36,110 nt of DNA from a virus (taxonomy: Duplodnaviria; Heunggongvirae; Uroviricota; Caudoviricetes). This document shows, piece by piece, positions 476-34,604 of this stretch. A model generated the notes under the pieces. It had not been told where the DNA came from, searched no databases, and saw only the letters and a list, made by a program, of their open reading frames with translations. The position numbers and the translations under genes are program-made. Each line of letters begins with the position of its first letter. The first letter of the stretch is position 1. The DNA lies in the IMG/VR virus record IMGVR_UViG_2585427735_000020; one strand, 5' to 3'.

Positions 476-503
476 TAAAAAATAAGCCCGTGTAAGGGAG
501 ATT
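476..503. repeat. attL core, 28-bp direct repeat TAAAAAATAAGCCCGTGTAAGGGAGATT
   Basis: Exact copy of 34577..34604; matches the P2 att core as I recall it; adjacent to int. Confidence 0.85.
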
Positions 504-2132: not shown

Positions 2133-2410
2133 ATGAATAGACAGCTTGTAAGCGTGACTGATGCCGTGCCTTATCAGGAGTTTGCAAAACTCATTGGTAA
2201 AACTCCAAGAGCTGTAAGGGGCATGATTGAGATGCGAAAGGGAAATTACCAGTTATTGAGATTACTGACCCTCAGTCAGTATCGGGGCGTGCTGGTGAAT
2301 ATTGGGTATACCTTCCGGCATGGAATAACGGACTAAAACTGGCTTATGAAAGCCGTCCTAAAGAGATTCGTGACGGCTGGTTGATGTGGTTAGGTCTCGG
2401 TGAACCACGT
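2133..2410 (+). pseudogene. cox: cox (excisionase / Pc repressor) with apparent -1 frameshift
   Basis: N-terminal 30 codons from the ATG at 2133 (MNRQLVSVTDAVPYQEFAKLIGKTPRAVRGMIE) run in frame 1; the Cox-like C-terminus (GKLPVIEITDPQ...LAYESRPKEIRDGWLMWLGLGEPR) continues in the -1 frame to stop 2411..2413 just before the next gene's SD; shift near 2235..2243 (GGG run). Confidence 0.55.
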
Positions 2411-2423
2411 TAAGGAGAACCGT

Positions 2424-3905: not shown

Positions 3906-4177
3906 GTATTCGTATTGAAATTGGCGAACGTTATGTCGTTACCAGTGACAGCTTTCAGTTTATTCTCCACGAGAAAAAGAGAGCGGAAAGCGGTAAAAAC
4001 GCCGGTCAGGAATGGCTGGCGGTGGTTGGTTATTACCCGAAATTAAGCCAGCTCGTTTCCGGCCTGATGCATCACGATATTCTGACCGGAAGCGCAAAGT
4101 CTTTTGCTGATTTAAACGCGCAGGTTGAGCAACTCAGCAAGCGTTGTTCAGAGGCTTTTGGCTCATATGACCGTTAA
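3902..4177 (+). CDS. Small early protein (P2 orf83-like), 91 aa
   Basis: Coupled ORF directly upstream of gene A. Confidence 0.5.
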   Translation: MSIRIEIGERYVVTSDSFQFILHEKKRAESGKNAGQEWLAVVGYYPKLSQLVSGLMHHDILTGSAKSFADLNAQVEQLSKRCSEAFGSYDR

Positions 4178-6269
4178 AGCCTCCGGGCATTTTGTCCCTC
4201 CGTCAGTATTTGCCGCAGGCACCGGTGAGACGTTTACCGGTGCTTATGCATGGAACGCGCCACGCGAGGCCGTCGGGCGCGAAAGACCCCTTACACGTGA
4301 CGAGATGCGTCAGGTGCAAGGTGTTTTATCCACGATTAACCGCCTGCCTTACTTTTTGCGCTCGCTGTTTACTTCACGCTATGACTACATCCGGCGCAAT
4401 AAAAGCCCGGTGCACGGGTTTTATTTCCTCACATCCACTTTTCAGCGTCGTTTATGGCCGCGCATTGAGCGTGTGAATCAGCGCCATGAAATGAACACCG
4501 ACGCGTCGTTGCTGTTTCTGGCAGAGCGTGACCACTATGCGCGCCTGCCGGGAATGAATGACAAGGAGCTGAAAAAGTTTGCCGCCCGTATCTCATCGCA
4601 GCTTTTCATGATGTATGAGGAACTCAGCGATGCCTGGGTGGATGCACATGGCGAAAAAGAATCGCTGTTTACGGATGAGGCGCAGGCTCACCTCTATGGT
4701 CATGTTGCTGGCGCTGCACGTGCTTTCAATATTTCCCCGCTTTACTGGAAAAAATACCGTAAAGGACAGATGACCACGAGGCAGGCATATTCTGCCATTG
4801 CCCGTCTGTTTAACGATGAGTGGTGGACTCATCAGCTCAAAGGCCAGCGTATGCGCTGGCATGAGGCGTTACTGATTGCTGTCGGGGAGGTGAATAAAGA
4901 CCGTTCTCCTTATGCCAGTAAACATGCCATTCGTGATGTGCGTGCACGCCGCCAGGCAAATCTGGAATTTCTTAAATCGTGTGACCTTGAAAACAGGGAA
5001 ACCGGCGAGCGCATCGACCTTATCAGTAAGGTGATGGGCAGTATTTCTAATCCTGAAATTCGCCGGATGGAGCTGATGAACACCATTGCCGGTATTGAGC
5101 GTTACGCCGCCGCAGAGGGTGATGTGGGGATGTTTATCACGCTTACCGCGCCGTCAAAGTATCACCCGACACGTCAGGTCGGAAAAGGCGAAAGTAAAAC
5201 CGTCCAGCTAAATCACGGCTGGAACGATGAGGCATTTAATCCAAAGGATGCGCAACGTTATCTCTGCCATATCTGGAGCCTGATGCGCACGGCATTCAAG
5301 GATAATGATTTACAGGTCTACGGTTTGCGTGTCGTCGAGCCACACCACGACGGAACGCCGCACTGGCATATGATGCTTTTTTGTAATCCACGCCAGCGTA
5401 ACCAGATTATCGAAATTATGCGTCGCTATGCGCTCAAAGAGGATGGCGACGAAAGAGGAGCCGCGCGAAACCGTTTTCAGGCAAAACACCTTAACCAGGG
5501 CGGTGCTGCGGGGTATATCGCGAAATACATCTCAAAAAACATCGATGGCTATGCACTGGATGGTCAGCTCGATAACGATACCGGCAGACCGCTGAAAGAC
5601 ACGGCTGCGGCTGTTACCGCATGGGCGTCAACGTGGCGCATCCCACAATTTAAAACGGTTGGTCTGCCGACAATGGGGGCTTACCGTGAACTACGAAAAT
5701 TGCCTCGCGGCGTCAGCATTGCTGATGAGTTTGACGAGCGCGTCGAGGCTGCACGCGCCGCCGCAGACAGTGGTGATTTTGCGTTGTATATCAGCGCGCA
5801 GGGTGGGGCAAATGTCCCGCGCGATTGTCAGACTGTCAGGGTCGCCCGTAGTCCGTCGGATGAAGTTAACGAGTACGAGGAAGAAGTCGAGAGAGTGGTC
5901 GGCATTTACGCGCCGCATCTCGGCGCGCGTCATATTCATATCACCAGAACGACGGACTGGCGCATTGTGCCGAAAGTTCCGGTCGTTGAGCCTTTGACTT
6001 TAAAAAGCGGCATCGCCGCGCCTCGGAGTCCTGTCAATAACTGTGGAAAGCTCACCGGTGGTGATACTTCGTTACCGGCTCCCACGCCTTCTGAGCACGC
6101 CGCAGCAGTGCTTAATCTGGTTGATGACGGTGTTATCGAATGGAATGACCCGGAGGTCGTGAGGGCGCTCAGAGGTGCACTAAAACACGGTCTAAGGACA
6201 CAAAATTATCTGCGAGACACAGCTCGCTCCCTAGATTCATGTTTACTCATGATTGGTGATTTTATATAA
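4167..6269 (+). CDS. A: Rolling-circle replication initiator gpA (HUH endonuclease)
   Basis: About 700 aa; HWHMMLF (HUH-like) and GYIAKYISK tyrosine motif; start taken as the ATG at 4167 (the track's TTG at 4125 is possible). Confidence 0.85.
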   Translation: MTVKASGHFVPPSVFAAGTGETFTGAYAWNAPREAVGRERPLTRDEMRQVQGVLSTINRLPYFLRSLFTSRYDYIRRNKSPVHGFYFLTSTFQRRLWPRIERVNQRHEMNTDASLLFLAERDHYARLPGMNDKELKKFAARISSQLFMMYEELSDAWVDAHGEKESLFTDEAQAHLYGHVAGAARAFNISPLYWKKYRKGQMTTRQAYSAIARLFNDEWWTHQLKGQRMRWHEALLIAVGEVNKDRSPYASKHAIRDVRARRQANLEFLKSCDLENRETGERIDLISKVMGSISNPEIRRMELMNTIAGIERYAAAEGDVGMFITLTAPSKYHPTRQVGKGESKTVQLNHGWNDEAFNPKDAQRYLCHIWSLMRTAFKDNDLQVYGLRVVEPHHDGTPHWHMMLFCNPRQRNQIIEIMRRYALKEDGDERGAARNRFQAKHLNQGGAAGYIAKYISKNIDGYALDGQLDNDTGRPLKDTAAAVTAWASTWRIPQFKTVGLPTMGAYRELRKLPRGVSIADEFDERVEAARAAADSGDFALYISAQGGANVPRDCQTVRVARSPSDEVNEYEEEVERVVGIYAPHLGARHIHITRTTDWRIVPKVPVVEPLTLKSGIAAPRSPVNNCGKLTGGDTSLPAPTPSEHAAAVLNLVDDGVIEWNDPEVVRALRGALKHGLRTQNYLRDTARSLDSCLLMIGDFI

Positions 6270-10838: not shown

Positions 10839-12610
10839 CAGTAAAACTCCAGAATGGTGGATGTCAGCGGGGTGCTGATACCGGCGGTGAGTGGCTCATT
10901 TAACAGGGCGTGCATGGTCGCCCAGGCGAGGTCGGCGTGGCTGGCTTCCTCGCTGCGGCTGGCCTCATAGGTGGCACTGCGTCCGCTGCTGGTCATGGTC
11001 TTGCGGATAGCCATAAACGAGCTGGTGATGTCGGTGGCGCTGACGTCGTATTCCAGACAGCCACGGCGGATAACGTCTTTTGCCTTGAGCACCATTGCGG
11101 TTTTCATTTCCGGCGTGTAGCGGATGTCGCGCGCGGCGGGATAGAACGAGCGCACGAGCTGGAACACGCCGACACCGAGGCCGGTGGCATCAATACCGAT
11201 GTATTCGACGTTGTATTTTTCGGTGAGTTTGCGGATGGATTCAGCCTGAGTGGCAAAGTCCATGCCTTTCCACTGGTGACGCTCAAGTATTCTGAATTTG
11301 CCACCGGCCACCACCGGCGGTGCCAGCACCACGCATCCGGCACTGTCGCCACGGTGTGACGGGTCGTAACCAATCCATACCGGGCGGGAGCCGAACGGAT
11401 TCGCGGCAAACGGCGCATAGTCTTCCCATTCTTCCAGCGTGTCGACCATGCAGCGTTGCAGCTCCTCGAACGGGAACACCGATGCCTTGTCGTCAACAAA
11501 TTCACACATGAACAGGTTTTTAAAATCGTCGGCGCTGTTTTCGCGTTTGAGCTGCTCAATGTCGAACAATGTGCAGCCGCCTTTCAGGGCGTCCTCAATG
11601 GTGACAATCTGCCGCCACTGGCCGTCCGCACAGAGAAGACCACCGGCAAGGGCGTTATGACTGACGTCGATTTCCACGCGTTCGGCGGCGCTGGCGCGTC
11701 CCCGGTTGAACAGTTCACCCGACCAGAACGGGTAGGCGTCGTGCGCCAGCGTGGACGGGGTGGAGAAATAGGTCGAGCGCAGGTGACTCTGTGAGGCCAT
11801 ACCTGATGCCACCTTACGCAGTACCTGAAAATTCGGGATCCAGAAAATCTCGTCGACGTACAGGTCGCCGTTATGGCTCTGCGCGGTGTTGGAGTTGGTG
11901 CCGAGAAAAATCAGTTTTGCGCCGTTATTGCCCAGGACAATCGGGTCACCAGTCAGGTCAACGTCAACCAGCCGGGCAAAGGCGATGATGTATTCGCGGA
12001 ACACATACGCCTGCGTTTTACTGGCCGACAGAAAAATCTGGTTATGGCCGGTTTTCAGGGCGCGCAGCAGCGCCTCACGGGAAAAATAAAACGTCGCGCC
12101 AATCTGACGGGATTTCAGGATATCGCGGATGCGGTGCTCAAGCCCGGCGCGATACCAGTGCAACTGATAGTCGAAAGACTGCTCAAAGAAAATCTGCTCC
12201 AGCTTTTCGATGGCCTCGTCACTGAAAAAATTCTTTTTCGGTTTGCGCCGCCCGCCTTTGTTGCGGTTAGCGACGTTCGGATTAAGGTCTGCCTCGTTGC
12301 CGGTCTGGCTGTAGCGATTTACCCGTGCCAGTCGTTCAATCTGGCGTCCCAGCAGGTCAATTTCCTTGAAGTCACCGCCGGTTTTCTGCGGTTTGATGAT
12401 GAGCTGGGTCAGCCGCGCTTCCAGGCTCATTTCGACACGGCTGATGGGGGCAACGTTGTCCCAGCCGTCGCGCTGTTTCCAGCTCTGCACCGTCGGGCGT
12501 TTCATCTGCAACATGGCGGCAATCTGCGGCACGGAAACCCCCTGCCAGTACAGCAGCGCCGCCTGACGACGCGGGTCGTGTAAAAGAGTGGTGTCTGTGG
12601 TGATGGTCAT
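10838..12610 (-). CDS. P: Terminase large (ATPase) subunit gpP
   Basis: About 590 aa from the ATG at 12610 (MTITTDTTLL...) with GAGGT SD; P2 position and length. Confidence 0.9.
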   Translation of the reverse strand: MTITTDTTLLHDPRRQAALLYWQGVSVPQIAAMLQMKRPTVQSWKQRDGWDNVAPISRVEMSLEARLTQLIIKPQKTGGDFKEIDLLGRQIERLARVNRYSQTGNEADLNPNVANRNKGGRRKPKKNFFSDEAIEKLEQIFFEQSFDYQLHWYRAGLEHRIRDILKSRQIGATFYFSREALLRALKTGHNQIFLSASKTQAYVFREYIIAFARLVDVDLTGDPIVLGNNGAKLIFLGTNSNTAQSHNGDLYVDEIFWIPNFQVLRKVASGMASQSHLRSTYFSTPSTLAHDAYPFWSGELFNRGRASAAERVEIDVSHNALAGGLLCADGQWRQIVTIEDALKGGCTLFDIEQLKRENSADDFKNLFMCEFVDDKASVFPFEELQRCMVDTLEEWEDYAPFAANPFGSRPVWIGYDPSHRGDSAGCVVLAPPVVAGGKFRILERHQWKGMDFATQAESIRKLTEKYNVEYIGIDATGLGVGVFQLVRSFYPAARDIRYTPEMKTAMVLKAKDVIRRGCLEYDVSATDITSSFMAIRKTMTSSGRSATYEASRSEEASHADLAWATMHALLNEPLTAGISTPLTSTILEFY

Positions 12611-12783
12611 GAATACCTCGCCGTGATGAATACACGGCAAGGCTACTGAGTCGCGTCCCGCGATTCGCTAAGGTGCTGTTGTGTCAGTGATAAGCCATCC
12701 GGGACTGATGGCGGAGGATGCGCATCGTCGGGAAACTGATGCCGACATGTGACTCCTCTAATCACTATTCAGGACTCCTGACA

Positions 12784-18539: not shown

Positions 18540-18984
18540 GTTTAAGCGTTTTGAAGACCGGCTGACCGGACTGACTGAATCGCTGTCACCGTCAGGGCGT
18601 CGGCGACTGAGTGCCGAACTGGCGAAACGTCTGCGGCAGAGTCAGCAGCGTCGGGTGATGGCACAGAAAGCCCCGGACGGCACACCCTACGCGCCACGCC
18701 AGCAGCAGAGCGCCAGAAAAAAGACCGGTCGTGTTAAGCGAAAAATGTTTGCGAAACTTATCACCAGTCGTTTTTTGCATATCCGTGCCAGCCCGGAGCA
18801 GGCATCAATGGAATTTTACGGCGGGAAGTCACCGAAAATCGCCAGTGTGCATCAGTTCGGTCTGTCGGAAGAAACCCGGAAAGACGGTAAGAAAATTGAT
18901 TATCCGGCGCGTCCTCTGCTCGGCTTTACCGGTGAGGATGTGCAGATGATTGAAGAGATTATCCTCGCTCACCTCGACCGTTAG
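18532..18984 (+). CDS. S: Tail completion protein gpS, 150 aa
   Basis: 150 aa; P2 order. Confidence 0.8.
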   Translation: MNEFKRFEDRLTGLTESLSPSGRRRLSAELAKRLRQSQQRRVMAQKAPDGTPYAPRQQQSARKKTGRVKRKMFAKLITSRFLHIRASPEQASMEFYGGKSPKIASVHQFGLSEETRKDGKKIDYPARPLLGFTGEDVQMIEEIILAHLDR

Positions 18985-19050
18985 TTGTGCCATTCCCGAC
19001 CCCTCATCGTCACATTGCCGCCGGTATGACCCGGCGGCATCCTTCCCGTT

Positions 19051-19686
19051 ATGAACACTCTCGCAAATATTCAGGAACTCGCGCGCGCACTGCGCAACAT
19101 GATCCGCACCGGCATTATCGTTGAAACCAACCTTAACGCCGGTCGCTGCCGTGTGCAGACCGGCGGCATGTGCACCGACTGGCTTCAGTGGCTGACCCAT
19201 CGCGCCGGACGTTCGCGCACATGGTGGGCACCTTCCGTGGGGGAACAGGTGCTGATTCTGGCCGTGGGCGGTGAACTCGACACGGCGTTCGTTCTGCCGG
19301 GGATTTATTCCGGCGATAACCCTGCGCCGTCTGCGTCGGCTGATGCCCTGCATATCCGTTTCCCTGACGGGGCGGTGATTGAGTATGAACCCGAAACCAG
19401 TGCACTCACGGTAAGCGGAATTAAAACGGCCAGCGTGACGGCTTCTGATTCTGTTACTGCCACGGTACCGGTGGTCACGGTGAAAGCGTCAACCCGTGTC
19501 ACCCTGGACACACCGGAAGTGGTCTGCACTAACAAACTGACTACCGGCACGCTGGAAGTGCAGAAGGGCGGGACGATGCGCGGCAACATTGAACACACCG
19601 GCGGTGAACTCTCATCAAACGGTAAGGTACTGCATACCCATAAACACCCCGGCGACAGCGGCGGCATAACCGGGAGTCCTTTATGA
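19051..19686 (+). CDS. V: Baseplate spike/hub protein gpV, 211 aa
   Basis: 211 aa; P2 order. Confidence 0.85.
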   Translation: MNTLANIQELARALRNMIRTGIIVETNLNAGRCRVQTGGMCTDWLQWLTHRAGRSRTWWAPSVGEQVLILAVGGELDTAFVLPGIYSGDNPAPSASADALHIRFPDGAVIEYEPETSALTVSGIKTASVTASDSVTATVPVVTVKASTRVTLDTPEVVCTNKLTTGTLEVQKGGTMRGNIEHTGGELSSNGKVLHTHKHPGDSGGITGSPL

Positions 19687-20034: not shown

Positions 20035-20943
20035 ATGCCGATTATCGACCTGAACCAGCTACCTGCACCGGATGTGGTCGAGGAGCTGGACTTTGAAACC
20101 ATTCTTGCCGAACGCAAGGCGACACTGATTTCCCTTTACCCGGAAGACCAGCAGGAGGCGGTCGCCCGTACCCTGACGCTGGAATCCGAGCCTCTCGTCA
20201 AACTGCTGGAGGAAAATGCGTATCGTGAGCTTCTCTGGCGTCAGCGTGTGAATGAGGCCGCACGGGCGGTGATGCTGGCCTGTGCCGCGGGTAATGACCT
20301 TGATGTGATTGGTGCCAATTACAACACCACGCGTCTGACTATCACCCCGGCAGATGATTCGACCATCCCGCCGACACCGGCAGTGATGGAATCTGACACC
20401 GATTATCGTCTGCGTATTCAGCAGGCGTTTGAAGGTTTAAGCGTCGCCGGGTCGGTGGGTGCCTATCAGTATCATGGCCGCAGTGCCGACGGGCGTGTCG
20501 CGGATATCTCTGTCACCAGTCCGTCTCCGGCCTGCGTCACTATCTCTGTGCTGTCACGTGAAAATAACGGCGTCGCATCCGAAGACCTGCTGGCTGTGGT
20601 GCGTAACGCCCTTAATGGCGAGGACGTCAGGCCGGTGGCCGACCGCGTGACCGTGCAGTCTGCCGCCATCGTTGAATACCAGATAAACGCCACGCTTTAC
20701 CTTTACCCTGGTCCCGAAAGCGAACCCATCCGCGCTGCTGCCGTGAAAAAGCTGGAAGCGTATATCACGGCACAGCACCGGCTGGGGCGCGACATCCGTC
20801 TGTCTGCCATTTATGCCGCTTTGCATGTGGAAGGTGTGCAGCGTGTCGAACTGGCTGCACCACTGGCCGACATCGTGCTCAACAGTACGCAGGCGTCTTT
20901 CTGTACCGAATACCGCGTCGTGACCGGAGGCTCGGATGAGTGA
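20035..20943 (+). CDS. J: Baseplate protein gpJ, 302 aa
   Basis: 302 aa; P2 order. Confidence 0.85.
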   Translation: MPIIDLNQLPAPDVVEELDFETILAERKATLISLYPEDQQEAVARTLTLESEPLVKLLEENAYRELLWRQRVNEAARAVMLACAAGNDLDVIGANYNTTRLTITPADDSTIPPTPAVMESDTDYRLRIQQAFEGLSVAGSVGAYQYHGRSADGRVADISVTSPSPACVTISVLSRENNGVASEDLLAVVRNALNGEDVRPVADRVTVQSAAIVEYQINATLYLYPGPESEPIRAAAVKKLEAYITAQHRLGRDIRLSAIYAALHVEGVQRVELAAPLADIVLNSTQASFCTEYRVVTGGSDE

Positions 20944-21465
20944 TTCGCGACTGCTGCCGACCGGCTCATCACCGCTGAGGTCGCCGCCGCAAAAGCCTGT
21001 GCGGAAATTGAAAAAACGCCGGTCAGTATTCGTGAGCAGTGGAACCCGGACACCTGTCCGGCAAATCTGCTGCCGTGGCTGGCGTGGGCGTTTTCGGTCG
21101 ACAGGTGGGATGAAAAGTGGCCGGAAGCGACAAAACGCGCCGTTATCCGCGATGCGTATTTCATCCACTGTCATAAAGGCACAATAGGTGCAATCCGGCG
21201 TGTGGTGGAGCCGCTCGGCTATCTCATCAACGTGACGGAGTGGTGGGAAAACAGTGACCCGCCCGGCACCTTCCGGCTTGATATTGGTGTACTGGAAAGC
21301 GGCATCACAGAGGCAATGTATCAGGAAATGGAACGGCTGATTGCTGATGCCAAACCTGCAAGCCGCCACCTTATTGGCCTGAACATTACCCGGGACATTC
21401 CCGGCTACCTGTTCGCCGGTGGTGTGGCTTACGACGGCGATGTAATTACGGTTTACCCCGGATAA
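20936..21465 (+). pseudogene. I: Baseplate gene I with apparent -1 frameshift near the 5' end
   Basis: ATG 20936 overlaps the J stop, but the native-looking product (...EVAAAKACAEIEKTPVSIREQWNPDTCPANLLPWLAWAFSVDRWDE...VITVYPG) is in the -1 frame from about 20977 to stop 21465; the ATG frame gives an Arg-rich junk ORF; total span equals the P2 gpI length. Confidence 0.6.
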
Positions 21466-21475
21466 GTGAGGAATA

Positions 21476-23794
21476 ATGAGCACAAAATTCAGAACCGTTA
21501 TCACCACTGCCGGTGCAGCAAAGCTGGCAGCGGCAACCGCACCGGGAGGGCGGAAGGTCAACATTACCACGATGGCCGTCGGGGATGGCGGTGGTAAATT
21601 GCCTGTCCCGGATGCCGGACAGACCGGGCTTATCCACGAAGTCTGGCGACATGCGCTGAACAAAATCAGCCAGGACAAACGAAACAGTAATTATATTATC
21701 GCAGAGCTGGTTATTCCGCCGGAGGTGGGCGGTTTCTGGATGCGTGAGCTTGGCCTGTACGATGATGCGGGAACGTTAATTGCTGTGGCGAACATGGCCG
21801 AAAGTTATAAGCCAGCTCTTGCCGAAGGCTCAGGGCGTTCGCAGACCTGCCGTATGGTCATCATCGTCAGCAGTGTGACCTCAGTGGCGCTGACCATTGA
21901 CACCACAACGGTGATGGCGACGCAGGATTACGTTGATGACAAAATTGCAGAGCATGAACAGTCACGACGTCACCCGGACGCCTCGCTGACCGCAAAAGGT
22001 TTTACTCAGTTAAGCAATGCGACCAACAGCACGTCTGAAACACTGGCCGCAACGCCGAAAGCGGTAAAGGCCGCGTATGATCTTGCTAACGGGAAATACA
22101 CTGCGCAGGATGCCACCACAGCGCGAAAAGGTCTTGTCCAGCTCAGTAGCGCCACCAACAGCACGTCTGAAACGCTCGCCGCAACACCAAAAGCGGTAAA
22201 GGCAGCATATGACCTTGCTAACGGGAAATACACTGCACAGGACGCCACCACAGCGCGAAAAGGTCTTGTCCAGCTCAGTAGCGCCACCAACAGCGATTCT
22301 GAAACGCTTGCGGCAACGCCAAAGGCGGTTAAGACAGCGTATGACCTTGCTAACGGGAAATACACTGCACAGGACGCCACCACGGCGCGGAAAGGTCTTG
22401 TCCAGCTCAGTAGCGCCACCAACAGTGATTCTGAAACGCTGGCCGCAACATCAAAAGCGGTGAAGTCTGCCTATGACAATGCTGAAAAACGTCTTCAGAA
22501 AGATCAGAACGGTGCGGATATTCCGGGAAAGGATACCTTCACGAAAAATATCGGTGCCTGTCGTGCTTATAGCGGCGCTTTGAGCACTGAAGCCGGAAAC
22601 TGGACAACCGCTCAGTTTATTGAATGGCTGGATTCCCGTGGTGCATTTAATCATCCGTACTGGATGTGCAAAGGCTCATGGTCATATGCAAATAACAAAA
22701 TCATTACGGATACCGGATGTGGTGATATCCACCTGGATGGTTGTGTCGTCGAGGTCATGGGAACTAAATCTGCAATCACTATCCGAGTGACCACGCCGAC
22801 AACATCAAGTGGTGGCGGTACAACCAGCGCGCAATTCACTTACATTAATCATGGGGACGGCTACTCCCCCGGCTGGCGTCGTGACTGGAATCGTCAGGGC
22901 GACTCAATGACCGGAACGATTAATCAGGATGGCGGAAGCCAGAATGCCTATATGTCTACGGCCTTATGTTCAGGCACCAGAGGCGGCAAAAAATATCTCA
23001 GAAAGTTTCGTGGTGGAGAAGGAGACACTATCTGGCATGAAACAGTACAGGGCGGGGTAGTTCGCTGGGCGACTGGTAATACTGATGCTCAGGAAGAATT
23101 ATCACTCAGCTCCGCTTATGGTCTCCGTTCAAGAGGTGAGATTACATCACTCAGTGCTAATGGTCTGCGCATTGCTTATGGCAATTATGGTTTCTTTATC
23201 AGGAATGATGGCAGCAGCACTTATTTTATGTTGACTAAATCAGGTGACAGATTAGGCAGTTATAATAATTTAAGACCGCTGATTATAAATGATGCCACGG
23301 GTGCTGTATCAATGGGGCATGGCCTGAATGTTACTGGTGATATTGTCTCAAGTACCAAAGTACGTGCCGGTAGCGGGAAAAAATTCACGGTCAGCAGCAG
23401 TAATACATCCACGAAGGAAGCCGCATTCAATTTGTGGGGAAACTCAAGTCGTCCGGTGGTGGCTGAATTAGGTGATGATGCAGGCTGGCATTTTTACAGT
23501 CAGAGAAATACAGATAACAGCATCACTTTTGCTGTTAACGGGCAGGTATCACCATCTAACTATGGCAACTTTGATTCACGCTATGTCCGGGATATCCGGC
23601 TTGGTGGTGCTGCCACATACAAACCTGCGAACAATGGCATGACATGGACACATCAGGCACCGTCCGGGTGTGTATATTCCGGCATTATTGTTCAGGATAC
23701 CGGCTCAAACTCTGCCGATAACATTGGTGGCATATATTACAGACCGGTGCAGAAATACATTAACGGGACATGGTATAACGTGGCGCAGGTATAA
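21476..23794 (+). CDS. H: Tail fibre protein gpH, 772 aa, with internal tandem repeats
   Basis: Conserved N-terminal tail-fibre region, then 132-nt repeats, then a lower-GC C-terminal receptor-binding region. Confidence 0.85.
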   Translation: MSTKFRTVITTAGAAKLAAATAPGGRKVNITTMAVGDGGGKLPVPDAGQTGLIHEVWRHALNKISQDKRNSNYIIAELVIPPEVGGFWMRELGLYDDAGTLIAVANMAESYKPALAEGSGRSQTCRMVIIVSSVTSVALTIDTTTVMATQDYVDDKIAEHEQSRRHPDASLTAKGFTQLSNATNSTSETLAATPKAVKAAYDLANGKYTAQDATTARKGLVQLSSATNSTSETLAATPKAVKAAYDLANGKYTAQDATTARKGLVQLSSATNSDSETLAATPKAVKTAYDLANGKYTAQDATTARKGLVQLSSATNSDSETLAATSKAVKSAYDNAEKRLQKDQNGADIPGKDTFTKNIGACRAYSGALSTEAGNWTTAQFIEWLDSRGAFNHPYWMCKGSWSYANNKIITDTGCGDIHLDGCVVEVMGTKSAITIRVTTPTTSSGGGTTSAQFTYINHGDGYSPGWRRDWNRQGDSMTGTINQDGGSQNAYMSTALCSGTRGGKKYLRKFRGGEGDTIWHETVQGGVVRWATGNTDAQEELSLSSAYGLRSRGEITSLSANGLRIAYGNYGFFIRNDGSSTYFMLTKSGDRLGSYNNLRPLIINDATGAVSMGHGLNVTGDIVSSTKVRAGSGKKFTVSSSNTSTKEAAFNLWGNSSRPVVAELGDDAGWHFYSQRNTDNSITFAVNGQVSPSNYGNFDSRYVRDIRLGGAATYKPANNGMTWTHQAPSGCVYSGIIVQDTGSNSADNIGGIYYRPVQKYINGTWYNVAQV
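21995..22500 (+). repeat. In-frame tandem repeat inside H: 132-nt (44-aa) unit, about 3.7 copies
   Basis: Units start at 21995, 22127, 22259, 22391; unit is KGLVQLSSATNS(T/D)SETLAATPKAVKAAYDLANGKYTAQDATTAR. Confidence 0.85.
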
Positions 23795-24800: not shown

Positions 24801-25736
24801 GTGGTTACATATAATTCAATGTTGTTACCCCCCCCTAAATCTTGGGACGAATTTGAGGATATGTGCAAAAGTTCATTCCAACTGCGATGGTCCAATCCTA
24901 ATCTGAACAGACATGGACGGTCAGGGCAGCGGCAGGATGGAGTTGATGTATATGGTGATGACTCTCTTGGGCGTTTCGTTGGAATTCAGTGTAAAAATAC
25001 AGTATCAGGAATCAGTACGGCGACAATCGATGATGAATTACTCAAGGCTGAAAAATTTCGCCCAAAAATTACGGTTCTTTACATCGCTACGACAGCGCCC
25101 AGGGATGTTAGCATTCAGCGCTATGTAAGAACACTCAATGATGCCAGACAATTAAAAGGCCTGTTTCCTGTCGATGTGGTTTTCTGGGAGGATATTAGCT
25201 TTGATTTAAGCAAAGACCCAGCTGTACTCAAAATGTACTACCCGCAAATGTTCGAACGACACCAACCGACGAGGGAAGAATTTTTGCGCAAGAGAGATAT
25301 CTCAAATTTGTCGACATTGTTGAATGTTATTGATTTTCATTCAACAATAGACCATTTGCAGTGGGGCGCAAAATACATTCATTCATTAATTATTGAAGAA
25401 TACGATAATATTTTGAACATTTTAAACTCACCTGTTTTTCAACTGAATGATACAGCTTTAAAGAATGTTACAATTGATTTTGCAACGGCCTGGCGTGATC
25501 TAATTATCTTGTTTAGAAAAGCTCCATATAATTATTCAGCACCAAATGATACTTTTAGTTTTATAAATCCCGGTGACCACTGTCGAAATCAGGAGGAAAG
25601 CGATTTATACGACGAAATCACGCATAGCATGAGTAATCTCAAAGATAAAATTAGTACTTTTTGTGACTTTATAAATAATCACTACCATGAAATAAACTTA
25701 ACCGAAACGAGCGCGCAAGCCAGGAAATATTATTAA
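24801..25736 (+). CDS. Cargo protein, 311 aa: Mrr-type PD-(D/E)xK restriction-endonuclease-like N-terminal domain + uncharacterised C-terminal domain
   Basis: GTG start 7 nt after AAAGGA; FEDM...RHGRSGQRQDGVDVYGDD...GRFVGIQCKNT (nt about 24912..24998) resembles the Mrr catalytic core (D...D...QxK); AT-rich, between G and FI. Confidence 0.55.
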   Translation: MVTYNSMLLPPPKSWDEFEDMCKSSFQLRWSNPNLNRHGRSGQRQDGVDVYGDDSLGRFVGIQCKNTVSGISTATIDDELLKAEKFRPKITVLYIATTAPRDVSIQRYVRTLNDARQLKGLFPVDVVFWEDISFDLSKDPAVLKMYYPQMFERHQPTREEFLRKRDISNLSTLLNVIDFHSTIDHLQWGAKYIHSLIIEEYDNILNILNSPVFQLNDTALKNVTIDFATAWRDLIILFRKAPYNYSAPNDTFSFINPGDHCRNQEESDLYDEITHSMSNLKDKISTFCDFINNHYHEINLTETSAQARKYY

Positions 25737-26518: not shown

Positions 26519-27385
26519 ATGGTCCGTTTTAACTTACTAGAAAATGCGTTGGATTCAGTGGAAACCGGGCTGGACTACTTTAACAAAGCGCTAGAAGGGC
26601 ATGATCGACGTGACTACAAACAGTGCCTGCTTAACCTCTTTCAGGCCGCTGAGCTATTGTTGAAGGCCGTAGTTTCGCGCAATGGGTCTGGAGCGATTTT
26701 TAATCCAGCATCGCTTCAAGAAAAATGTGTGGATCCGGCGCATCCAACCGAGTCAGAATTACACCAGTGTAAATCTGTCAACGTCAACCAGCTTTGTAAG
26801 CTGTTAAAGACATATTACCCAGCCGAATTTTCTGAATCTGCATTACAAATGATGAAAACGGTGGGTCAGTTGCGTAATAACCTTCAGCATTTTGCCCTTG
26901 AGGTTCGTCCGCAAGAACTGGCAATGCAACTGAGTGAACTGTACCAACAAATTTTTCGTCCCGCATTCGTCATAATTCAGTCAGATGAGACCGAAAATTC
27001 ATGGAACTCTGATTTACGTCAAGACATCATCGCTCTTGAGCAACAATTCCTTGATATAACTGTTAACCAGGAATACACCCTTGCACTTTGTCCCGTTTGT
27101 GAGAGTTTTTCACATTTTATCCTTTACCAAGGTGAAAGCTTTCCGGCACGGACTCACTGTATCTGTTGTGGTTTCAGCCTGAATAATCTGCAAACTTGGG
27201 ATTTTCAGGAATGTCCTGAATGTAGTGTCCCATCCGTAATTTATTTACCGGAACAAAGGGTCGGTGTCTGTCTCTGGTATAAATGTGAATACAGCAAGAT
27301 GGATGGTTTTGTTCCTATGGAGCCTTGTGAATGTGGTGCATTCCGGATGGAAGGTCATTGCAGTAACTGCGATCTTGAGGAATAG
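26519..27385 (+). CDS. Cargo protein, 288 aa: HEPN-like helical N-terminal domain (Rx4H) + C-terminal multi zinc-ribbon domain
   Basis: ATG 26519 after a G-rich SD; LRNNLQH at 26873..26890; CPVC, CICC, CPEC, Cx4C, CEC, CSNC pairs across 27089..27370. Confidence 0.55.
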   Translation: MVRFNLLENALDSVETGLDYFNKALEGHDRRDYKQCLLNLFQAAELLLKAVVSRNGSGAIFNPASLQEKCVDPAHPTESELHQCKSVNVNQLCKLLKTYYPAEFSESALQMMKTVGQLRNNLQHFALEVRPQELAMQLSELYQQIFRPAFVIIQSDETENSWNSDLRQDIIALEQQFLDITVNQEYTLALCPVCESFSHFILYQGESFPARTHCICCGFSLNNLQTWDFQECPECSVPSVIYLPEQRVGVCLWYKCEYSKMDGFVPMEPCECGAFRMEGHCSNCDLEE

Positions 27386-29651: not shown

Positions 29652-29927
29652 ATGGACAAAGAAAATGTCATTACCCTGGAAAATCCGGTCAAACGTGGTG
29701 AGCAGGTTATCGAACAGGTCACGCTGATGAAACCCAGTGCCGGGACGCTGCGCGGTGTCAGTCTGGCTGCGGTCGCAAACTCCGAAGTCGATGCACTGAT
29801 TAAAGTGCTGCCGCGCATGACGGCACCGATGCTGACCGAGCAGGAAGTCGCCGCGCTGGAACTGCCTGACCTTGTGGCGCTGGCCGGTAAGGTGGTCGGT
29901 TTTTTGTCGCCGAACTCGGTGCAGTAA
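29652..29927 (+). CDS. E: Tail assembly chaperone gpE, 91 aa
   Basis: 91 aa ending just after the slippery site. Confidence 0.8.
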   Translation: MDKENVITLENPVKRGEQVIEQVTLMKPSAGTLRGVSLAAVANSEVDALIKVLPRMTAPMLTEQEVAALELPDLVALAGKVVGFLSPNSVQ

Positions 29928-34576: not shown

Positions 34577-34604
34577 TAAAAAATAAGCCCGTGTAAGGGA
34601 GATT
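34577..34604. repeat. attR core, 28-bp direct repeat identical to attL
   Basis: Exact copy of 476..503; forms the 3' terminator end of the cyaR sRNA. Confidence 0.85.

Follow-up and report, generated by a model that had tools for sequence, protein, structure and literature searches.

Gene I of the P2-like prophage described here has lost a single T in codon 14, and this loss is very probably a genuine mutation that arose once, in a recent ancestor, and has since been inherited vertically; as such it forms part of the main explanation put forward here. The window, that is the whole 36.1-kb stretch of DNA that was analysed, is identical in sequence to NCBI JOQC01000013.1 (assembly GCA_000713905.1) of E. 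coli 3-475-03_S1_C2, a strain of ST200, phylogroup B1 and O127:H27 whose host was a one-year-old Tanzanian child, in January 2009 (PMC6222053, Table S1; Richter et al. 2018). The underlying data are 100-bp Illumina HiSeq 2000 reads, assembled with MaSuRCA into 176 contigs (PMC6222053). A complete P2-like (Peduovirus) prophage with a full length of 34.1 kb spans positions 477-34604, between the host genes yegR and yegQ, and is bounded by two cores that match that of P2 without a difference:

477-503, plus strand: attL core, 27/27 match to the P2 attP core
34578-34604, plus strand: attR core, 27/27 match to the P2 attP core

When every P2 protein was searched against the window with tblastn, the head, lysis and tail genes except I were found intact, together with int, C, B and ogr. 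These searches and the P2 annotation also show that the order V-W-J-I-H-G is kept, with the start of I overlapping the stop of J. Like several close relatives, the window lacks P2 orf30, a minus-strand ORF of 786 nt that P2 has between S and V, at 18984-19051, and a 261-aa ORF is kept at the orf30 position in other relatives (L017, L019, L020 and L022).

Gene I and its reading frames

The features at and around gene I are the following:

20035-20943, plus strand: gene J (baseplate wedge protein), intact, 302 aa, 99.3% identical to P2 J over 302 aa (tblastn)
20926-20938, plus strand: ribosome-binding site GGAGG (20926-20930) and native ATG of gene I (20936-20938), the latter overlapping the J stop in ATGAGTGA
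20975-20977, plus strand: codon 14 of gene I, site of the single-T deletion, CTG as against CTT in P2 (alignment with P2 and vB_YpM_46)
20936-21187, plus strand: frameshifted ORF of 83 aa, made of 14 native gpI residues and 69 out-of-frame residues, with the stop TAG at 21185-21187
20977-21465, plus strand: stranded body of gene I, codons 15-176 and TAA, in the -1 frame relative to the ATG
21010-21016, plus strand: G AAA AAA, a partial slippery run in the mutant frame, 35 nt past the deletion (heptamer scan)
21202-21465, plus strand: the sole start-bearing ORF in the gpI frame, beginning with GTG, an 87-aa C-terminal remnant and the ORF that gene callers annotate
21476-23794, plus strand: gene H (tail fibre, 772 aa), intact (tblastn)

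Like P2 I (gpI, NP_046774.1; PF09684), which encodes the 'triplex' subunit of the baseplate wedge and anchor of the tail fibre, the gene lies between J and H and begins at an ATG that overlaps the J stop. The overlap measures 8 nt in the window and likewise in P2, where J occupies 11292-12200 and I 12193-12723, and the GGAGG stands 5 nt ahead of the ATG; the choice of ATG 20936 as the gene I start, previously made from the sequence alone by analogy with P2, is thereby upheld. The frame opened by this ATG starts with MSDSRLLPTGSSPL, which is identical to residues 1-14 of P2 gpI. In the alignment with P2 and Yersinia phage vB_YpM_46 one T is then lost, CCGCTTGAGG becoming CCGCTGAGG, so that CCG CTT GAG GTC of P2 is read as CCG CTG AGG TC in the window and the frame changes at codon 14/15. 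The longer form, CCGCTTGAGG, is also present in ETEC 504237 and in two relatives of the window prophage, L023 (GCA_023483145.1) and L025 (GCA_903973235.1), opposite the window gap CCGC-TGAGG.

Residues 15-176 of gpI are encoded in the -1 frame (20977-21462) with 99.4% identity to P2 gpI (tblastn), and this 162-aa product matches PF09684 (Tail_P2_I) at E = 2.9e-52, its 176.7 bits lying above the gathering score of 20.6. No ATG, GTG or TTG is found in the gpI frame (positions equal to 1 modulo 3) from the stop at 20941-20943 to GTG 21202, and the C-terminal remnant that begins there is annotated with 86 aa in the source record and with 87 aa in Logan contigs. The sequence-only reading had described an early frame-disrupting lesion in I, with a gpI-like sequence lacking a start of its own in the -1 frame from about 20977, and the alignment with P2 bears it out on both points. 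Its description of the ATG frame as an Arg-rich nonsense ORF fits the 69 out-of-frame residues, in a product that counts 14 Arg and 13 Ser among its 83 residues, but not the first 14 codons, which are the true N-terminus of gpI. Unlike P2 I, then, the window gene is short of one T in codon 14 and offers no uninterrupted ORF of about 176 codons from which a single 176-aa protein could be read. Since the frame changes at codon 14/15 and the start frame ends after 83 codons, gene I is, judged by its reading frames, a pseudogene of the Tail_P2_I family and no longer a functional member of it.

A Pfam search with the 83-aa frameshift product matched no family. Its exact look-up returned no record, and a homology search found only other frameshift alleles, at A4 and A6 runs; the Logan contigs that bear the deletion annotate the 87-aa remnant only. 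Two antisense ORFs across gene I (374 aa and 117 aa) are without a Pfam match and were treated as chance ORFs. As a result of the deletion the gpI body lies in the frame of J, from which it is separated by the J TGA and 11 codons (20941-20979).

Origin of the deletion and its possible bypass

The identical deletion recurs in three independent data sets that were produced by other assemblers, namely GCA_012080315.1, Logan SRR5005301 and Logan ERR1623134. In the first of these (AAROUQ010000001.1) the same prophage is found in the same host flank, and a comparison with the window over 21 kb shows 7 substitutions but no further indel; contig SRR5005301_8, free of mismatches across 1,464 nt, carries the deletion as well, and so does contig ERR1623134_24, with two further similar places on record. 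The I-deleted prophage is found in at least four sampled isolates, the carriers having been retrieved solely by exact-protein look-ups of the C-terminal gpI remnant. The closest relatives that share the architecture of the window and have an intact I are GCA_903973235.1 and GCA_023483145.1, which differ from it by 10 and 19 SNPs, respectively, over 21 kb, and both encode a 700-aa A, a 1,011-aa SIR2-domain protein, a 772-aa H and an intact 176-aa I. The occurrence of the same deletion in independent data, together with near relatives in which the gene is intact, argues for a real mutation with a single recent origin and subsequent inheritance.

It had previously been conceded that the lesion in I might be a sequencing error. 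In the light of the three data sets above, it is very unlikely that JOQC01000013.1 lacks the T through an error of sequencing or assembly and that the true gene I is intact, even though several properties of the record and of the allele would fit such an error. The record dates from 2014 and belongs to a short-read draft in 176 contigs, and the allele is rare: none of 5,426 complete E. coli genomes contains a 50-mer centred on the junction, and a 36-mer is absent from the GTDB species representatives and from IMG/VR. Across the junction, all of the 30 phage matches listed (of 84) and all of the 40 E. coli matches listed (of 1,519 genomes) are one base longer than the window and in frame. Moreover, homopolymer indels, probably errors, interrupt many I genes in the databases, and the window holds six private substitutions, at 1365, 10439, 12538, 19001, 22402 and 22737, found neither in any relative nor in P2. 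Five of them are transversions (three A:T>C:G and two G:C>T:A), and non-synonymous changes account for four of the five that fall in coding sequence (Int H78N, Q T134P, P F25V and H A421D). Two of the six, at 1365 and 10439, are contradicted by the Logan assembly of SRR1186690 (probably the reads of this isolate, SRS568289), whose contig SRR1186690_59 was compared with the window up to position 12336 and shows the ancestral base at both sites, and for this reason the deposited consensus may hold some substitution errors; the private substitutions could represent MaSuRCA consensus errors, relaxed selection, or an oxidative-damage or mutator signature. Nevertheless, the deletion lies in a TT dinucleotide, without a long homopolymer, and is the sole coding indel in 24 kb, since over this length the window differs from ETEC 504237 by three indels, of which the other two are intergenic. 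In a comparison of the first 12 kb with STEC1588, indels are confined to the divergent immunity region (2014-2235), four of them between C and cox in addition to the insertion in cox itself. A noisy, indel-rich assembly is ruled out by these counts, and the cox insertion of the same record is reproduced by Logan SRR1186690.

Broken I genes are common in public assemblies; within the collection, 154 indexed blocks contain the 87-aa remnant. Independent lesions of I occur elsewhere (L008, which is Logan ERR1623214_22; L039-L043; proteins P0001-P0008), and their types include a deletion that fuses J and I, a loss at nt 28, and losses of one base in an A6 run (nt 77) and in an A4 run (nt 57). A number of these lesions, in assemblies rich in other frameshifts, are probably long-read errors.

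A real deletion might still be bypassed in expression, by a -1 ribosomal slip, by transcriptional slippage or by readthrough of the J stop, any of which would yield some functional gpI; we consider this extremely unlikely, and it is just as hard to credit that UGA readthrough (a J::I fusion) or -1 slippage at a leaky lesion could supply enough wedge subunit to leave the prophage weakly viable. The two routes have some basis in the sequence. The J TGA (20941-20943) is the sole stop between J and the gpI body, which share one reading frame, and occasional readthrough of this UGA would yield J::gpI(15-176) as a fusion, whereas slippage could take place at G AAA AAA, there being no other near-slippery sequence from the deletion to the premature stop. 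However, wild-type P2, which needs no shift, has the same A6 run, and a slip at this point would leave 12-13 wrong residues, three prolines among them. No perfect X XXY YYZ heptamer was detected within 20936-21187, and an Rfam search of the region gave no match. The hairpin predicted from about 21030 is likewise contained in wild-type P2 and folds in an ordinary manner (z = -1.5 against shuffled sequences, with 12 of 200 shuffles as good). The two-frame arrangement is absent from the phage matches listed (30 of 84) and from the 5,426 complete E. coli genomes. A comparison may be drawn with the programmed -1 frameshift of P2 E/E+E' (tail assembly chaperone), in which frames also overlap within a tail gene and the downstream part is in the -1 frame; yet that system has a conserved slippery run, GGTTTTTTG, which is kept in the window at 29899-29906 and looks very different from the site in I, where no slippery sequence is found and the arrangement is conserved in no relative. 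In addition, the further lesions in tail genes and in cox within the clade suggest that particle genes are no longer under selection. A programmed frameshift, which the sequence-only reading had named as one way in which its view of I could fall, is rejected on the lack of a slippery heptamer, of significant RNA structure, of an Rfam family and of conservation.

Further lesions, cargo and decay

The other features that bear on the state of the prophage are:

2133-2413, plus strand: cox, disrupted by the 5-nt insertion GATGC at 2231-2235 (by comparison with 345 E. coli relatives that share its immunity type)
6452 (or 6374)-9487: cargo gene for a SIR2-domain protein of 1,011 aa (or 1,037 aa), in the tin/old hotspot
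24801-25736: cargo ORF of 311 aa in the Z/fun hotspot, between G and FI
26519-27385: cargo ORF of 288 aa, also between G and FI in the Z/fun hotspot

The lesion in cox that had been noted along with that in I does exist. The start frame of cox gives a 67-aa product that ends at 2336, and residues 34-91 are encoded in another frame up to 2410, followed by a stop at 2411-2413; the GATGC insertion occurs neither in the 345 relatives nor in any complete E. coli genome. As it is also found in the Logan assembly of SRR1186690, the insertion is real. The two lesions had been taken together, but their origins are separate: GCA_012080315.1 combines the I deletion with a wild-type cox, which shows that the I deletion preceded the cox lesion. 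The same genome has a 27-nt in-frame deletion in B (equivalent to 2960-2986; 157 aa against 166 aa), and in contig ERR1623134_24 the I deletion is accompanied by an extra T in J (TTT to TTTT, equivalent to about 20696), by which a second baseplate gene is frameshifted. The loss of one nucleotide in I is common to four data sets and the gain of five in cox to two. On this evidence the I deletion came first, and separate descendants then gained differing lesions, 5 nt more in cox, 1 nt more in J and 27 nt less in B. This pattern of secondary lesions looks like stepwise decay, under relaxed selection on an already dead prophage.

The cargo, on the other hand, has been kept, as had been proposed from the sequence. 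The only recognisable part of the 1,011-aa protein is the SIR2 domain, at residues ~126-300, and this cargo is carried by no isolated phage of the collection. For the 288-aa protein a match was obtained to PDC-S64, a candidate defence family, which covers the N-terminal 140 residues (E = 3.7e-21), and neither Pfam nor PADLOC gave one for the 311-aa protein. The SIR2 cargo gene adjoins replication gene A (4167-6269, 700 aa in close relatives), whose match to P2 A extends to residue 680 of 761 and is followed by some 20 unrelated codons. We considered whether this truncation of A might be a third decay lesion and dropped the idea, since the A/SIR2 junction is common to the whole cargo lineage, including a member in another host background (L030; 17 SNPs, upstream host flank); the truncated A is probably compatible with a viable phage. 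In STEC1588, A is labelled a pseudogene by PGAP. The tail fibre H, 772 aa against 669 aa in P2, is about 50% identical to its P2 counterpart overall and contains, at ~22006-22422, four tandem units of ~44 aa of the form ...YTAQDATTARKGLVQLSSATNS.SETLAATPKAVK.AYDLANGK. The Logan contigs break within these repeats.

The retention of intact cargo ORFs, the 1,011-aa SIR2-domain protein in the tin/old hotspot and the PDC-S64-matching 288-aa protein in the Z/fun hotspot, is what one would expect if the loss of I (and of cox) had been selected, the host gaining a locked-in, non-lytic prophage that still confers immunity and carries defence genes; likewise, the persistence of the I-deleted prophage in several sampled isolates would agree with such a domestication. 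We nevertheless regard it as unlikely, given that the clade is very shallow, with a handful of SNPs, that a single origin of the allele is seen and that the divergence is too small to measure selection, while the secondary lesions are scattered and affect the replication gene B as well, as neutral decay predicts. Of the earlier description of the prophage as "defective, domesticated", the first term stands, for we infer from the lesions in I and cox that the prophage is defective; the second does not, as the clade is shallow, int, att and the other late genes are intact and no evidence of selection for loss was obtained. The preferred explanation is therefore decay that follows a real deletion in I. 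The prophage is recently crippled and at an early stage of decay, and has not been moulded by long selection, since its lesions fall within a very shallow clade, kin with an intact I are 10-19 SNPs away and the late genes, int and att are otherwise intact.

Expected consequences and significance

Mutants of P2 in gene I are defective in tail assembly. The satellite phage P4 relies on the late genes of a helper, and a prophage without I is expected to fail in this role, so that a lysogen bearing the I deletion would offer P4 no helper function. With the T lost from codon 14, translation from the native ATG leaves the frame after 14 residues and stops at 21187, and the Tail_P2_I domain (residues 15-176) is stranded in the other frame without a usable start. 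A stub of 14 residues of gpI would be unable to form the wedge or to hold the gpH fibre. According to cryo-EM of the P2 baseplate, each wedge consists of two gpJ and one gpI, and the C-terminus of gpI anchors the gpH fibre (bioRxiv 10.64898/2026.09.14.750843). Given this double role of gpI, as wedge partner of gpJ and as anchor of gpH, a lysogen with the allele should not build baseplates or tails, and no infectious P2 particles would be expected from it. Another P2-like prophage in the 5.5-Mb genome of the isolate, if present, could supply gpI in trans. In addition, the ~290 untranslated nucleotides ahead of H could lower the expression of H and G by polarity.

A virion gene frameshifted in a decaying prophage is a well-known phenomenon, and the finding is real but ordinary. 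Other decaying E. coli prophages follow the same course, in which a virion gene is killed by a small indel, the lesion is inherited vertically and further lesions are added, while immunity and accessory genes are kept. In E. coli K-12, a P2 remnant with no more than a few genes occupies the same yegR-yegQ site; unlike this remnant, the prophage in the window has kept its full length of 34.1 kb, both att cores without a mismatch, and its other late genes intact. No new mechanism is added by the finding in gene I, and its bearing is in the first place on annotation: the prophage of E. coli 3-475-03_S1_C2 is to be scored as defective, with gene I and cox as pseudogenes. For the biology of these phages, the clade that carries the I deletion illustrates, in a natural setting, how prophage decay begins while immunity and the hotspot cargo are kept.
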